From IMG/VR virus record IMGVR_UViG_3300005739_000002, positions 34,019-98,018 of that record: 64,000 nucleotides of DNA. The stretch is one strand, 5' to 3'. Positions within the stretch are counted from its first letter, which is position 1. Each line of letters opens with the position of its first letter. A program made the position numbers and the translations under genes. Shown here in pieces: positions 3,691 through 54,025 of this stretch. The notes beneath the pieces were generated by a model. The model did not search any database, was not told where the DNA came from, and was given only the letters and a program-made list of their open reading frames with translations. Origin of the DNA: a virus.

Positions 3691-3972
3691 ATGACTATAT
3701 ATGTAGGTTCTAGGTACGAGTTTTCTCTTGTAGACTTCTTTTCTACCACTGTTGGTGGCGGTGAAAACCCTGTAGTATTTTATGATTTTCCTGATATAGG
3801 AACTCTTTCATACTATGACCATACAATAGTAGAGGGTGAGAGGCTAGACCATCTTGCTAATAAATATTACAGAAGGTCTTCTATGTGGTGGATTATATTG
3901 GACCACAATCCAGAGCTTAAAGACATCTTTAATATACCAGCTGGAACTATAATAAGGATACCTCGTGTTTAA
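3691..3972 (+). CDS. LysM-like / tail X baseplate protein
   Basis: HTIVEGERLDHLANKYY..WWIILDHNP..IPAGTIIRIP pattern; SD GGAG. Confidence 0.75.
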   Translation: MTIYVGSRYEFSLVDFFSTTVGGGENPVVFYDFPDIGTLSYYDHTIVEGERLDHLANKYYRRSSMWWIILDHNPELKDIFNIPAGTIIRIPRV

Positions 3973-5305: not shown

Positions 5306-5856
5306 TAGATGATAAAAGGTTTTATGGTATCTATTTGGGCATTTGTATAGACGTAGAAGACCCTGAAAAAGATAACCGTATACGTTTACAGATACCGCAA
5401 GCTTTAGGTCAGTCAGAAACTGGATGGGCTAGAGCCTGCCTGCCTGTCACATCTAATAGTAATCACCCTGACCATAAAAAGCATTTGGCATCAGAGGTCG
5501 CAGCCCTGCTACAAGCCCACGCTACCCACGCTACCCATAGCGAAACTATCACCTCTAGTCCAGCAACCGTTAGCACCTTTGGCTCCCACACTCACACCGT
5601 AACCATCAGTCTTGCACACGATGCTCACACTAATAACCATACGGGCAAGACGCCAGACTCTACATGGAACTTAGACCATGAACATGAAGAGGATGAAAAC
5701 GCAGATAACAAGTGGAATGATGACCAAGAACAGTCGCTTGTCAATACAATGGAGCACACACCGCATAGACTAGTACCTAAACTAGGTCAAAAAGTCTGGG
5801 TAATGTTTGAGGGCGGAGACCCCAACTTCCCAGTGTGGATGGGAGTTGAACTATGA
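5302..5856 (+). CDS. baseplate spike OB-fold protein (gp5/VgrG/gpV-like) with His-rich insertion
   Basis: YGIYLGICIDVEDPEKDNRIRLQIP..GWA and VPKLGQKVWVMFEGGDPNFPVWMG. Confidence 0.8.
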   Translation: MIDDKRFYGIYLGICIDVEDPEKDNRIRLQIPQALGQSETGWARACLPVTSNSNHPDHKKHLASEVAALLQAHATHATHSETITSSPATVSTFGSHTHTVTISLAHDAHTNNHTGKTPDSTWNLDHEHEEDENADNKWNDDQEQSLVNTMEHTPHRLVPKLGQKVWVMFEGGDPNFPVWMGVEL

Positions 5857-25187: not shown

Positions 25188-25518
25188 AGGCCAAAGGGAA
25201 TCTCAGAAGCACGAGGCTCGACTAGCAAAACGTGTCGGTGGTAAGCGCAATGCTGCCAGCGGTGCATTTTGGAGTCGTAAGGGTGATGTGCGGTCTAAGG
25301 ACTTGTTAATAGAACACAAGTGGACTGGCAAAACTCAAGTAACTGTCAAGGCAGCAGTACTAGAAAAGATTGTCACCGAAGCCATCGTTGATAGTCGGAC
25401 ACCTGTCCTCGGGTTCAGTCTTAACAATAACAATTACATATTGCTAACTGAAGATGATTTTCTGGAAATGCGCCAGAATCTTCAGGAGCATAATTGTACG
25501 ACGACACAGGTCACGTAG
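25177..25518 (+). CDS. Holliday-junction resolvase-like PD-(D/E)xK nuclease
   Basis: E..SGA..KGDV..LIEHK. Confidence 0.7.
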   Translation: MKSKGQRESQKHEARLAKRVGGKRNAASGAFWSRKGDVRSKDLLIEHKWTGKTQVTVKAAVLEKIVTEAIVDSRTPVLGFSLNNNNYILLTEDDFLEMRQNLQEHNCTTTQVT

Positions 25519-25811
25519 AAGGCTGGCGACATAAAGCCAAGTGCCGCGGTATGGATACCGAGCTTTGGTTTCCCCCTCGTGATAAAACTAAATATAGAAA
25601 AGTAGCAACGATATCTAAGGGCGTCTGCTTTGGACGTGATGGTCTGCCAGAGTGCCCTGTACGCAAGCAGTGCTTGCTGTATTCGGACCAGATGGATGAG
25701 CAGCATGGTATCTGGGGCGGCCTTAGCCATCGTGAGCGTAACGCTCTTAAAAGAAAACTAAAAAAAGACGGAACCACTTTAAAGGAATACCTTGATGATG
25801 ATAGGGTGTAG
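25494..25811 (+). CDS. whiB: WhiB-family transcription factor
   Basis: four Cys, WFP, GIWGGLS..ER. Confidence 0.9.
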   Translation: MYDDTGHVEGWRHKAKCRGMDTELWFPPRDKTKYRKVATISKGVCFGRDGLPECPVRKQCLLYSDQMDEQHGIWGGLSHRERNALKRKLKKDGTTLKEYLDDDRV

Positions 25812-39971: not shown

Positions 39972-40214
39972 ATGAATCCAACAATATATACAAAACCAGA
40001 CTGCCCAGCATGCGACGCGACTAAAAAATACTTTAGTAAATACAATGTCGAGTATGTATCCGTTGATATTACGGAAAATGACGAGGCTCTAAACCTTATT
40101 AAATCTTTAGGGTATAACTACACGCCAGTAGTGGTGGTAAATGAATCTAACCATTGGCAGGGCTTTCGACCAGATAAAATTGCGTCATTAAAAACAATTA
40201 AACATGCTATTTAA
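39972..40214 (+). CDS. nrdH: NrdH-like glutaredoxin
   Basis: YTKPDCPAC.ATK, PVVV, WQGFRPDKI; follows RNR. Confidence 0.9.
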   Translation: MNPTIYTKPDCPACDATKKYFSKYNVEYVSVDITENDEALNLIKSLGYNYTPVVVVNESNHWQGFRPDKIASLKTIKHAI

Positions 40215-40476
40215 TAATAAAGCCTCTTGTGAAGGTCTTGAATCTGACATATTTTTTCCAGACGAAGCCAGTCACTATCAGTATTTATCAACAGTTAAAA
40301 AAATGTGTGATAATTGTTCAGCAAAATTAGAGTGCTTTGATTATGCTATAGAAAACGCGGTTCAGGGTATATGGGCAGGAACCACCTTTAATGAACGAGA
40401 CGCGTACAGACTAAAACATGGAATAGTCGCTAAAGGCGTTGTGCCAAATAATTTAGTTTACGACCATATCGCTTAA
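40204..40476 (+). CDS. whiB: second WhiB-family transcription factor
   Basis: C..FFP..CDNC..C..GIWAGTT..ER. Confidence 0.85.
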   Translation: MLFNNKASCEGLESDIFFPDEASHYQYLSTVKKMCDNCSAKLECFDYAIENAVQGIWAGTTFNERDAYRLKHGIVAKGVVPNNLVYDHIA

Positions 40477-46911: not shown

Positions 46912-46930
46912 CTCAGGAACTTATCCACAG
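46912..46930. promoter_or_regulatory. extended DnaA box 2
   Basis: CTCAGGAAC-TTATCCACA (46921-46929). Confidence 0.8.
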
Positions 46931-50369: not shown

Positions 50370-50449
50370 TTGTTTGTGTCGGGGCTTATGGGTGCATATA
50401 TCTATATAGCACCCGTAACACACACGCCCATAAGCCCCGACACAAACAA
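50370..50449. repeat. cassette-boundary palindrome, type B
   Basis: 23-bp perfect arms TTGTTTGTGTCGGGGCTTATGGG / complement; inner TATATAGC and ACACACGCCC. Confidence 0.9.
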
Positions 50450-50475
50450 AAAGCCCCGCCTTTCGGCGGGGCTCC
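50448..50475 (-). terminator. intrinsic terminator
   Basis: AAAAAGCCCCGCC-TTTC-GGCGGGGCT (GAAA tetraloop on minus strand). Confidence 0.8.
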
Positions 50476-51498: not shown

Positions 51499-51571
51499 AA
51501 CAGCCCCCTTCTATGCGAGACCTTCTCGCATGCGCTCACCCTATCAGATACATCTCTCAACCCTATTAGTT

Positions 51572-51590
51572 CTCAGAAAGTTATCCACAG
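51572..51590. promoter_or_regulatory. extended DnaA box 6
   Basis: CTCAGAAAG-TTATCCACA (51581-51589); TAGGGT -10 37 nt downstream on minus strand. Confidence 0.8.
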
Positions 51591-51596
51591 GGCGCG

Positions 51597-51686
51597 ATGT
51601 TTGTGTTGGGCTGCTTATGTGTGTATATGAAGATATATAGCGAAATGTTTATACACACACGCCCATAAGCAGCCCAACACAAACAT
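51597..51686. repeat. cassette-boundary palindrome, type B
   Basis: 23-bp perfect arms ATGTTTGTGTTGGGCTGCTTATG / complement; inner TGTGTATA/TATACACA, TATATAGC, ACACACGCCC. Confidence 0.9.
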
Positions 51687-51691
51687 TCTTC

Positions 51692-51705
51692 GTTTCACGT
51701 GAAAC
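51692..51705. promoter_or_regulatory. parS: parS centromere-like site (ParB-binding consensus)
   Basis: perfect intergenic palindrome GTTTCACGTGAAAC, 15/16 match to TGTTTCACGTGAAACA. Confidence 0.8.
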
Positions 51706-51738
51706 AAAAAGGCCCGAGCGGGAAGGTGCTCGGGCCTC
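51706..51738 (-). terminator. intrinsic terminator
   Basis: AAAAAGGCCCGAGC..GCTCGGGCCT. Confidence 0.75.
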
Positions 51739-51758
51739 TTCGTAGGGGGTTTATAACC

Positions 51759-52058
51759 TCACGCCATCGCTGGCGTGAAGATTCGACGGATATAGTTTTG
51801 CTGCTTGCTTGTAGTGACGCTGAACTTCTGATTCACTACGTACCAACCATTGGCCCCATACCATGCGATTGGCGTGCTATATGATAAGACTACGTAGGCG
51901 CCCTCTTTAAAGTCTTCTACTAGTCTACTGTATTCCTCGCCTAGGCGTCCAGGTCCTGGCGTGTAGTTGTAATAACGGCCACTAAGTGAAGAGGCTTCGA
52001 ATGCTTGACGGTTAGCAATGCGCTCCATCGCTTCTTTCTGATTGACCTGCAGTCTCAT
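51759..52058 (-). CDS. hypothetical protein
   Basis: YVVLSYSTPIAW..W..KFSVTTSKQQ; ATGA coupling. Confidence 0.7.
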   Translation of the reverse strand: MRLQVNQKEAMERIANRQAFEASSLSGRYYNYTPGPGRLGEEYSRLVEDFKEGAYVVLSYSTPIAWYGANGWYVVNQKFSVTTSKQQNYIRRIFTPAMA

Positions 52059-52249
52059 GCGTCCTCCCTTGTACTGTGCCAGTAATCGGCCGCGGCTTCT
52101 GCCCTGTCCGCGTAATCCTGCTCACCCTCACTGTAACCCTTGAGGTAACCTGATATCTTGCCAGACCTGTAGGCGAAGAATCCGACAACAAGAGCAACGA
52201 GGATGTCAACGAGTAAGTTGAAACCGTTATAGAAGATGATTTCATTCAC
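52055..52249 (-). CDS. small membrane protein
   Basis: one TM segment then GY..GY..G; GTGA coupling at 52249. Confidence 0.55.
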   Translation of the reverse strand: MNEIIFYNGFNLLVDILVALVVGFFAYRSGKISGYLKGYSEGEQDYADRAEAAADYWHSTREDA

Positions 52250-52383
52250 GCTAGCGCTTTCCTTTCCTCGTCGGCGCATGTGTAGCAGATACGCCCGACG
52301 AATTCCAAAACACCTAACACGAACGCATCAACGCCACTGTGTACAATATTGCCGTCCTGCGTGGTACCGCATTTATAACACAT
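52246..52383 (-). CDS. small Cys-pair protein (45 aa)
   Basis: MCYKCG..CYTC; SD AGGGG. Confidence 0.5.
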   Translation of the reverse strand: MCYKCGTTQDGNIVHSGVDAFVLGVLEFVGRICYTCADEERKALA

Positions 52384-52458
52384 TTATAACCCCTAATCTG
52401 TGAGCCCCTTGCTCACTGGGATAAACTTAGCAGGCCTGGGATATATATCAATAACCCT

Positions 52459-52477
52459 CACAGAAAGTTATCCACAG
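52459..52477. promoter_or_regulatory. extended DnaA box 7
   Basis: CACAGAAAG-TTATCCACA (52468-52476); TAAGTT -10 38 nt downstream on minus strand. Confidence 0.8.
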
Positions 52478-52500
52478 GCAAACTCTCCTCCTATAACTCC

Positions 52501-52570
52501 CTATATTAGAACGGGGTGGGAGGGCCAACACAAACATGCGAGAGCCCCGCGCCTTGCGACGCGGGGCTTC
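52501..52570. repeat. half palindrome (type C remnant) plus terminator
   Basis: CTATATTAGAA..GGGCCAACACAAACA without left arm, then AGCCCCGCG..CGCGGGGCT. Confidence 0.6.
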
Positions 52571-52580
52571 GCTCTACTAC

Positions 52581-52955
52581 TTATGAAATTGTCGTCGTGC
52601 TCATGAGGCGGTCATCCTGAGCCTCGCCTACTTTTTCGTACCAACGGGTATCGCGCTGGATGAATGCTGCGATTATGTTAGACCATAGATTTACATGGTC
52701 AGAGCCATAATAAGGGGCGATTTTGATGTCGCATAGTTGCGTCATGTAATCGAAGTCCCATAGTTGGAACCCCTTATCATTTACCACTAGGCGGTATCCA
52801 CCTTGAGGTAATAGTTGAGAGTAAATTGGCATGGATACCAATTCGCGCTCGCGGTCAATATCTACCTCGCCGAATTCATAGAGCGAGTGTTCCGCGTTTA
52901 GTCTGCCCTCTAGTTCAGGGGTCAGACCTCCTGCGAAAGTGTAAAGAATAGTCAT
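52581..52955 (-). CDS. hypothetical protein
   Basis: first gene of the minus-strand block. Confidence 0.6.
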   Translation of the reverse strand: MTILYTFAGGLTPELEGRLNAEHSLYEFGEVDIDRERELVSMPIYSQLLPQGGYRLVVNDKGFQLWDFDYMTQLCDIKIAPYYGSDHVNLWSNIIAAFIQRDTRWYEKVGEAQDDRLMSTTTIS

Positions 52956-53047
52956 CTGACTAAACCTTCCCTACTTGGGGCGCTTACTCCTTGTTCAGCG
53001 CCCAGTGAGATAAACTTATGGCATAACCCTATTAGATACAACCGACA

Positions 53048-53086
53048 CTCAGAAAGTTATCCACAATCACAGAAAGTTATCCACAA
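53048..53086. promoter_or_regulatory. tandem extended DnaA boxes 8 and 9 (20-bp direct repeat)
   Basis: CAGAAAGTTATCCACAA x2 (boxes 53057-53065, 53077-53085); TTGTAT-N17-TAAGTT promoter follows on minus strand. Confidence 0.85.
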
Positions 53087-53203
53087 CCTAACCCTCTACC
53101 TGAGGTTGAGGGGTAGGGGTTAGACGACACGCCCGACCGCGTGGGTGGCAGGTAACATGAGTACCTATTTATACATTTAGTAGGCAGTAGCCTATAATAG
53201 AGT

Positions 53204-53668
53204 GTGCGAATAATGCGAAAGTACGGGAAGGGACACCTCGCCTTTACGCGGGGCAAGTTCGATGACTGGGCAGTCTATGTTAAATACCCAATGTTTCCTC
53301 AATGGCCCACAGACAAGTGGTACTTTATTAAGCTGCGGAGTATGGCCCTCTATGGACCCGCATACGATGATTTTGTCGCCCTTTACGATAAGACCACGGC
53401 GGAAGTTGATGAGCTGGTTTTTGACTGGATTGACGGGATAAGTACTAAGTACCCCAATGCCGAGGAGGCCGCGGTTATCTTTGGTATCTTCTATATGACT
53501 ATGATTGCAGAAGAGAACAAGGACGGGGCTATCCTAAAGAAAAGAATTAAGAGGCTAGGTGTCCATCAAGTACTCAAGGAGGGCATGAAACCAGAGCTGG
53601 CGGCTAACTATTCGCGGGGAAAGCCCGTCGGAGAGTTAACTTTAGAGTGTCACAAGAGAGGGTTCTGA
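53204..53668 (+). CDS. hypothetical protein
   Basis: TATAAT-N5-GTG; RGKFDDW..MIAEENK..KRIKRLG. Confidence 0.65.
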   Translation: MRIMRKYGKGHLAFTRGKFDDWAVYVKYPMFPQWPTDKWYFIKLRSMALYGPAYDDFVALYDKTTAEVDELVFDWIDGISTKYPNAEEAAVIFGIFYMTMIAEENKDGAILKKRIKRLGVHQVLKEGMKPELAANYSRGKPVGELTLECHKRGF

Positions 53669-53680
53669 TAGGATTAAGGC

Positions 53681-53917
53681 ATGGAACTATTAATTCTCGT
53701 ACTTATCGCTCTTGGTGTTGCTATTACCGCTGTTGCTCTTCGTGAAGATAAGTGGTTTAAGCAGGAAGACTACTCTTGGTTGGACTTTGAAGAAAAGGTT
53801 GATACCAAAGAAGAAGTCAAACCTAAGAAGAAGGCTGCTAAGAAGCCAGCTAAGAAGGCTGTAAAGAAGACAGCCAAAAAGAAGAAGCCAGCCAAGAAGG
53901 CTGCTAAGCGTCGCTAA
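53681..53917 (+). CDS. membrane-anchored protein with histone-H1-like K/A/P tail
   Basis: N-terminal TM; KKKAAKKPAKKAVKKTAKKKKPAKKAAKRR. Confidence 0.65.
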   Translation: MELLILVLIALGVAITAVALREDKWFKQEDYSWLDFEEKVDTKEEVKPKKKAAKKPAKKAVKKTAKKKKPAKKAAKRR

Positions 53918-54025
53918 TGTGTTTGAAGTGTGGGGCGTGCTCAAGAGAGCACCCCTACTCAATGGATGATGCTATAGATGCCTATGAGAGTTTAGGGTTT
54001 AAAACCCAGGCAGTAGCCTCACAAT

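Follow-up and report, generated by a model that had tools for sequence, protein, structure and literature searches.

The closest known system to the parS site described here is that of the virulent Bacillus phage phi29. As summarised in PMC2731898, host-type parS sites in phages phi29 and Nf were described by Meijer et al. (2005); the same summary states that phi29 carries five parS sites for the host ParB homologue Spo0J, which help the phage genome to be segregated to the prespore, and that its early promoters contain Spo0A boxes that suppress the lytic cycle. Given this precedent, the idea of an orphan host parS on a phage genome is not new in principle. Chromosomal-type parS is a 16-bp palindrome, TGTTNCACGTGAAACA, for which up to two mismatches are customarily tolerated (PMC10197239), and the 14-bp parS of Streptomyces coelicolor ParB is credited to Jakimowicz 2002 where it is cited in PMC7022226 (also treated in bioRxiv 10.64898/2025.12.10.693275). 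One parS is enough for a ParB complex to form, and promoters close by can be affected by ParB (PMC7022226). In Caulobacter, ectopic parS disturbs ParB foci, cell length and division (PMC5815017). The Streptomyces plasmid SCP1 keeps a parS specificity separate from the chromosomal one, and a mobile element with a chromosomal parS is therefore not the default.

A first reading of an uncultured virus record, made without database searches (the sequence-only reading), had pointed to a chromosomal-type parS site in a lytic-looking phage and had proposed that the phage recruits host ParB/SMC to position, protect or segregate its DNA, or disturbs host segregation. Here, we compare this locus with the rest of the phage genome, with related phages, with viral contigs at large and with actinobacterial chromosomes. 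The window, by which we mean the whole 64-kb stretch of DNA that was analysed, is the final 64 kb of the 98,018-bp IMG/VR virus record, which constitutes a complete phage genome.

A single chromosomal-type parS site in a complete phage genome

The site had been called a perfect chromosomal-type parS, and its core bears this out: the 14-mer GTTTCACGTGAAAC is exact at window positions 51692-51705. The full 16-mer is identical to the consensus TGTTTCACGTGAAACA at 15 of 16 positions, the exception being the left flank, which is C instead of T, and it thus falls within the two mismatches tolerated for the palindrome. It does not share the origin-proximal, clustered arrangement of chromosomal parS, as there is one copy and the genome is viral. 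A search of the entire 98,018 bp returned only this site. No second copy of the 14-mer was found at up to one mismatch in the whole genome, and no other 16-mer site at up to two mismatches in the 64-kb window or at up to three of 16 in the complete genome; the remaining matches carry at least four mismatches in 16, which is the level of Markov-shuffled sequence.

The sequence-only reading regarded a chance occurrence as improbable. This stands for the single genome, in which 4e-4 copies of the 14-mer are expected from composition, but not for the scan as a whole, which covered about 250,000 windows and in which dozens of chance 14-mers are expected. A composition-matched control palindrome was found 29 times in IMG/VR. 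In view of the scan size and of these control occurrences, rarity inside one window is by itself no proof of function.

The site is placed between a terminator and a boundary hairpin

The parS site lies in a 260-bp spacer that separates two minus-strand genes (Table 1). Along the minus strand, the order is the 99-aa ORF, its terminator, parS, 5 nt, the 90-nt hairpin, the early-cassette repeat cccTGTGGATAActttctgaga, a leader of about 70 nt, an SD and the DUF932 gene. The T-tract of the terminator (A5 on the plus strand) directly abuts parS. This terminator was omitted by the terminator scanner, whose loop and stem rules it does not follow, and it was found as an inverted repeat and in the fold. 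The predicted fold of the 196-nt stretch is far better than that of shuffled sequences (z = -9.65) and gives parS a 5-bp mini-hairpin with a 4-nt loop. The spacer has no Rfam match.

Table 1. Features of the parS spacer and its surroundings and the two WhiB-family genes (window coordinates)
Feature	Position	Strand	Remarks
99-aa ORF, function unassigned	51759..52058	-	its terminator precedes parS
Intrinsic terminator of upstream cassette	51706..51743	-	inverted repeat and fold; GC-rich stem GGCCCGAGC / GCTCGGGCC
parS-type palindrome CGTTTCACGTGAAACA	51691..51706	.	15/16 against the consensus; core 14-mer exact
Long boundary hairpin, 90 nt	51597..51686	-	22-bp outer stem plus inner stem; ends in CCAACACAAACA
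Early-cassette repeat cccTGTGGATAActttctgaga	51571..51592	-	core is the DnaA-box 9-mer, TTATCCACA on the plus strand, 51581-51589
DUF932 gene, 336 aa	50488..51498	-	Pfam PF06067, E = 3.8e-49; phrog_1221; first gene downstream of the spacer
WhiB-family gene 1	25494..25811	+	PF02467, 61.3 bits, G000:59542-59766
WhiB-family gene 2	40204..40476	+	PF02467, 47 bits; adjoins glutaredoxin and class II RNR

A paralogous boundary at about 50370-50465 contains a terminator, a paralogue of the long hairpin (about 50370-50450) and the motif but no parS, and here CTTTTTG directly adjoins TTTGTGTCGGGG. Since the other three elements occur together without parS, the earlier description of the site as an insert between terminator and hairpin is accurate, and the layout could be confirmed.

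The long hairpin itself is about 96% identical to that of a related locus, L003 (about 3790-3880), with paired 2-nt indels on the two arms; on either side of it, L003 and the window have nothing in common, neither in the terminator nor in the promoter motif. Judged from this comparison, the hairpin behaves as a conserved module at cassette recombination joints. On the upstream side of the spacer, a 2-kb block (52012-53962) that includes a 124-aa ORF and a DUF7004 gene (53204-53668) has no counterpart in the otherwise collinear genome of the related phage G002, which puts parS at the edge of a variable block.

Gene content points to a virulent phage of an actinobacterial host

The gene products of the phage include proteins of the baseplate and the contractile tail, PolA, an SNF2 helicase, a class II RNR and a MoxR ATPase that has a VWA partner; three tRNAs are also encoded. 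Searches of the complete genome for integrases of the tyrosine or serine type found none, in agreement with its lytic appearance. Similarly, the absence of parAB that had been noted before extends to the complete genome, in which the three Pfam models ParB_N, HTH_ParB and ParA-type AAA_31 have no match. A parABS cassette of the plasmid or prophage kind was therefore rejected, as its own parA and parB have no Pfam match anywhere in the genome.

Both WhiB-family genes score well over the Pfam cut-off, which was exceeded only by Corynebacterium among 14 control genomes; WhiB proteins typify Actinobacteria and the phages that infect them (PMC8612146). Judged by PolA, Streptomyces phages come closest among isolates, with about 40% identity, and the closest cellular NrdJ proteins, at 60-65% identity, are those of Micrococcales. 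Together, the two WhiB genes and the Micrococcales NrdJ place the host, by gene content, among the actinobacteria.

NrdJ proteins 63-74% identical to that of the phage are also encoded on five contigs (L274, L280, L282, L283 and L287) of Lake Mendota and other MAGs, assigned to Flavobacterium, Gammaproteobacteria, Luteolibacter, Cyclobacteriaceae and Beijerinckiaceae. These are probably phage contigs that were mis-binned into MAGs, and the Lake Mendota contigs suggest a freshwater origin of the phage group. The genome ends share a direct repeat of exactly 55 bp (G000:1-55 and 97964-98018), which is probably no physical repeat but the assembler overlap of a circular contig. The long terminal repeat of BE-cluster Streptomyces phages contains the DUF932 gene (two places per record), and the early array of the present phage may accordingly be terminally redundant.

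The neighboring DnaA box is the core of an early-promoter repeat

A DnaA box had been noted about 100 bp from parS. The 9-mer TTATCCACA is indeed present, at a distance of 103 bp, but it does not stand alone. Nine plus-strand copies, all in the same orientation, are found between 46772 and 53077 (span to 53086), and only one further copy exists elsewhere in the genome. The repeat cccTGTGGATAActttctgaga, of which the 9-mer is the core, is placed once ahead of each early cassette; at two places, 46772/46921 and 53057/53077, it forms a tandem pair. The copy nearest to a cassette is about 85-95 nt away from the gene start, and only the upstream copies of the pairs, at 46921 and 53077, depart from this spacing. 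The element is not confined to this phage: 80 related loci (L002-L081, 640 kb) contain 108 copies of the 9-mer, compared with 9-24 copies of control 9-mers, and only CC-TGTGGATAA-CT is conserved around it in these relatives. Collectively, these data revealed that TTATCCACA is the core of a repeated early-promoter element and no stray box near an origin-like parS.

Two other interpretations of the box were rejected. A mimic of an oriC-like origin, for which densely spaced boxes of mixed orientation beside an unwinding element would be expected, does not agree with nine co-oriented boxes that are 20 (the tandem pair at 53057/53077) to about 1,350 bp apart and sit within a longer repeat, and a lone DnaA box does not agree with a 9-mer that belongs to the repeat ahead of every early cassette. 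In L040, the repeat core is directly followed by TTGTCCACA, and in some distant relatives the core is arranged in inverted pairs.

The site is absent from close relatives

The DUF932 gene identifies 80 related loci, and parS is absent from the syntenic spacer in all 80. The whole records of the five closest phages also lack the site at up to two mismatches. One of these is G002, a 100%-complete 96.9-kb genome with 121 of 151 ORFs in common, in which no degenerate parS remnants were detected over the shuffled background. The L003 locus combines a near-identical hairpin with a different terminator and a spacer of equal length and another sequence. In L247 and L248, which carry a homologue of the 99-aa ORF followed by a terminator, no parS comes after the cassette; in one of them an unrelated and shorter spacer takes its place, and in the other the spacer is missing. 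Among cultured phages, BRock, LuckySocke, pSt2308 and three BE-cluster Streptomyces phages, chosen as the nearest by PolA or DUF932, are likewise without parS, and three flank-based scans found no conspecific contigs. In the sequence-only reading, absence of the site from all relatives was one of two findings that together would speak against it, and as far as close relatives go this one applies: none of them has the site, even where the flanking cassettes are shared. By these comparisons, this copy appears to be lineage-specific and hence dispensable.

Such a distribution is what would be expected if a variable 20-nt spacer had drifted into a parS or had been replaced by one, with incidental ParB binding possible and no gain for the phage. 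The equal-length spacer of L003 fits this neutral scenario, as do the uniqueness of the copy and the frequencies of the control palindrome and of chance 14-mers given above. Part of the left arm, TTTTTGTTT, is moreover nothing but the terminator T-tract, a stretch that is also present in the paralogous unit at 50447. The low expectation for a single genome speaks against such an origin, and so do the wider distributions of the motif.

parS-type sites are over-represented in viral contigs and recur in the phage family

In IMG/VR, at least 119 stretches contain the exact 14-mer, compared with the 29 occurrences of the control palindrome. The 14-mer is thus at least 4-fold over-represented in viral contigs (loci L096-L243), and at least about 75% of its exact matches are in excess of the control. 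Among the matches listed, 60 of 98 single-copy loci carry both T..A flanks of the 16-mer (chance, roughly 10%), and 57% of these 98 loci, compared with 83% of control matches, fall within an open frame that is 120 aa or longer. ParB_N exceeded the cut-off in 3 and was lacking in 14 of the 18 parS-bearing contigs of at least 30 kb among the matches listed; in the same set, 6 of the 9 contigs that are at least 90% complete are without ParB_N. Orphan parS, as far as these counts go, seems widespread in viral contigs. One of the loci, L129:3419-3520, has a perfect parS core that is immediately followed by four iteron-like repeats, TGCTAAGNTATTTAGT; on this viral contig of 14 kb, the arrangement resembles a locus for replication or partition.

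A similar picture emerged in the wider family of the phage. The 14-mer at up to one mismatch is present in 9 of 50 relatives and its control in none. The 16-mer at up to two mismatches gave 13 sites in 10 of 50 records, compared with one control match; two of the ten records had been chosen for carrying parS, and without them the count is 11 sites in 8 of 48. One of the 13 sites is perfect, 11 have one mismatch and one has two, whereas chance predicts about 96% at exactly two. The relatives have one or two sites per genome, and all the sites examined are intergenic. Within the same early-gene array, they take up three different positions. One is before DUF932, as in this window, and a second, found in the syntenic pair G013 and G057, is directly upstream of the MoxR-VWA operon. 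The third, in an AT-rich clade, is the head of the array; at this one spot, the centre is CG in G055 and CA/TG in eight others. The phages of this clade (35-39% GC, WhiB-positive; G015, G019, G020, G023-G025, G029 and G030; loci L082-L090 and L091-L095) carry one or two intergenic copies of ATGTTTCA(CA/TG)TGAAACAT, which extends over 18 bp. A perfect intergenic 16-mer was also present in two further WhiB-encoding contigs, G069 and G074. In five of five mid-GC WhiB-encoding lineages, a hairpin of -21.8 kcal/mol or lower is found no more than 70 nt from the site, which is true of 6% of random positions. The motif-bearing relatives tested are WhiB-positive, and none of them has ParB_N over the cut-off (G057 has two sub-threshold matches). 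Taken together, parS-like sites recur non-randomly in this phage family.

This recurrence weighs against the neutral scenario. Family sites cluster at zero to one mismatch and the control gave a single match; the present site is intergenic, whereas most control matches lie inside long open frames; the placement next to a terminator is shared with four other WhiB-encoding lineages; and the bulk of the exact IMG/VR matches exceed the control. We therefore consider a neutral origin of this copy rather unlikely.

Some copies in relatives deviate from the palindrome. AT-clade copies are often found beside a gene for a 93-104-aa HNH endonuclease and a TAGTCGACTA palindrome. In G013 (L263), the sites at positions 5492 and 5858 are TGTTTCACGTGAACCA and TGTTTCGGCTGAAACA, 366 bp apart and upstream of the MoxR operon, and the second of these retains the outer arms only.

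The same motif marks actinobacterial chromosomes

Among Actinomycetes, the exact 14-mer was found in 93 of 121 genomes and the control in 0 of 121 (88 of 116 without the five unpublished genomes G089, G104, G109, G112 and G117). The sites typically form tight clusters, with 1-23 chromosomal copies per sampled genome. A Georgenia genome has the 16-mer with C at position 1, CGTTTCACGTGAAACA, as its chromosomal form, and in an Isoptericola genome two sites of a five-site chromosomal cluster have this sequence. Seven Actinomycetes genomes of 1.4-1.7 Mb (G092, G113, G129, G140, G155, G165 and G187) lack an exact 14-mer and carry paired 13/14 sites 0.6-1.1 kb apart, all with a CG centre, such as GTTTCACGTGAAtC with GTTcCACGTGAAAC or two copies of GTTTCACGgGAAAC. 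These pairs are presumably the chromosomal parS of the small genomes, so a natural parS need not be perfect.

Host ParB is the most economical binder

To our knowledge, ParB is the only protein that is known to read the parS sequence. The canonical parS, the lack of phage ParAB, the actinobacterial host and the recurrence in the family make host ParB the most economical binder. Moreover, the same 16-mer, including its T..A flanks, is present in phages that share few genes and range from 35 to 50% GC, which points to a universal host protein. Recruitment of host ParB, as proposed in the sequence-only reading, is thus supported on all these counts, and it is weakened by the absence of the site from close relatives. 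On balance, we regard the site as probably, if by no great degree of confidence, a genuine and dispensable orphan parS that would load host ParB on the genome of a virulent actinophage.

Several other candidates were tried and rejected. Phage ParB or ParA as the binder is incompatible with the lack of matches to the three Pfam models in the genome. For a phage-encoded binder, no candidate was found: the only ORF common to G013 and G057 and missing from the motif-less G002 is a glutaredoxin, and the HNH endonuclease beside the AT-clade motif has no homologue in this genome. A host parS with a CA/TG centre would explain the AT clade, but the small actinobacterial genomes all keep the CG centre; the CA/TG-centred variant was not found as a host parS in the genomes searched, nor in the literature searched. 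The CA/TG-centred sites of the AT clade may bind something other than ParB.

If host ParB is indeed the binder, a ParB dimer would nucleate on the 16-mer in the infected actinobacterial cell, close as a CTP-bound clamp and slide over the adjoining early-gene DNA, so that the phage DNA would be handled like an origin-proximal piece of the host chromosome. The site follows a terminator and precedes the next early promoter module, and this gap would be free of transcription. By analogy with phi29, a likely payoff would be that the phage genome rides on the host segregation machinery when lytic growth is delayed. Alternatively, ParB could act locally on the early promoter next to the site, or it could be sequestered by the replicated phage copies. 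ParB binding and each of these downstream consequences are what we infer from the sequence of the site and its context.

The phi29 analogy can be taken further. parS and the DnaA-box repeats might form one host-coupling module that supports a hidden carrier state, in which host DnaA at the early promoters would gate lysis by the replication or growth state of the host and host ParB would pass the silent phage genome on, together with the chromosome, to daughter cells or spores. We consider this extension improbable.

A regulatory site for another protein, either a phage regulator or a non-ParB host factor, would have to read GTTTCA-N2-TGAAAC, and the identity with parS would be a coincidence of the CG centre. 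The AT clade lends this operator interpretation some credit, as its form ATGTTTCA-(CA/TG)-TGAAACAT has a non-consensus centre and an 18-bp extent and lies, in several phages, beside the gene for the small HNH endonuclease; the outer arms left in TGTTTCGGCTGAAACA of G013 and the site in L194, situated between a promoter-like element and the RBS, point the same way. However, no candidate binder gene co-occurs with the motif once HNH endonuclease and glutaredoxin are discounted, the T..A flanks of the 16-mer consensus are kept as well, and the spread of one 16-mer over phages with little common gene content and different GC fits a universal host protein better. An operator of this kind is, in our view, quite improbable. 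Finally, an element acting at the RNA or transcription level, in which the palindrome would extend the terminator tail or form an extra hairpin with no protein partner, agrees with the position directly after the T-tract, with the mini-hairpin in the fold and with the strong hairpins within 70 nt in five lineages, but it is very improbable given that paralogous and orthologous cassette boundaries work without parS, that a 5-bp stem with a 4-nt loop is weak, that such a role does not demand the exact 16-mer in unrelated contexts and that Rfam gave no match.

Implications and comparison with known systems

Should host ParB truly load on the site, virulent actinophages would exploit the host partition machinery while encoding none of it, as phi29 does, and what has been the curiosity of a single phage would reach beyond one phylum and take in large uncultured phages. 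The over-representation in viral contigs, the conserved 16-mer flanks and the predominant lack of ParB suggest that the phenomenon is common and under-described. It would then bear on carrier states and pseudolysogeny and on the biology of ParB and SMC in the presence of extra centromeres, and parS could serve as a marker for host prediction. The importance of this particular copy is limited, since it is single and lineage-specific. If the two-part module with DnaA were real, host cell-cycle proteins would serve a whole group of freshwater and soil actinophages, about 100 kb in size, as a switch between lysis and dormancy.

Compared with the chromosomal ParABS centromere of Actinobacteria, the phage site has the identical 14-mer, and its CGTTTCACGTGAAACA form is itself found in chromosomal clusters. 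The chromosomal sites are origin-proximal, usually clustered and accompanied by parAB, whereas the phage has one site and no parAB. The plasmid-prophages P1 and N15 and the extrachromosomal mycobacteriophages (PMC7157519) likewise carry a centromere-like site on a phage genome. In contrast to the present phage, which has neither partition gene and uses the chromosomal consensus, they are temperate, encode their own ParA and ParB and have a private parS specificity.

The comparison with phi29 is the closest. The two phages differ in that phi29 is a protein-primed podovirus, 19 kb in size, whose host is a sporulating Firmicute, whereas the present one is a 98-kb contractile-tailed actinophage; phi29 has five parS sites and the present phage one, which its nearest relatives lack. 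For phi29, the dependence on Spo0J and the entrapment in the spore were shown experimentally, whereas the parS described here is known from sequence alone. Where phi29 has Spo0A boxes at its early promoters, the present phage has a DnaA-box-cored repeat before every early cassette. Like phi29, it is virulent, encodes no parAB and carries a parS of the host-chromosome type on its own genome.
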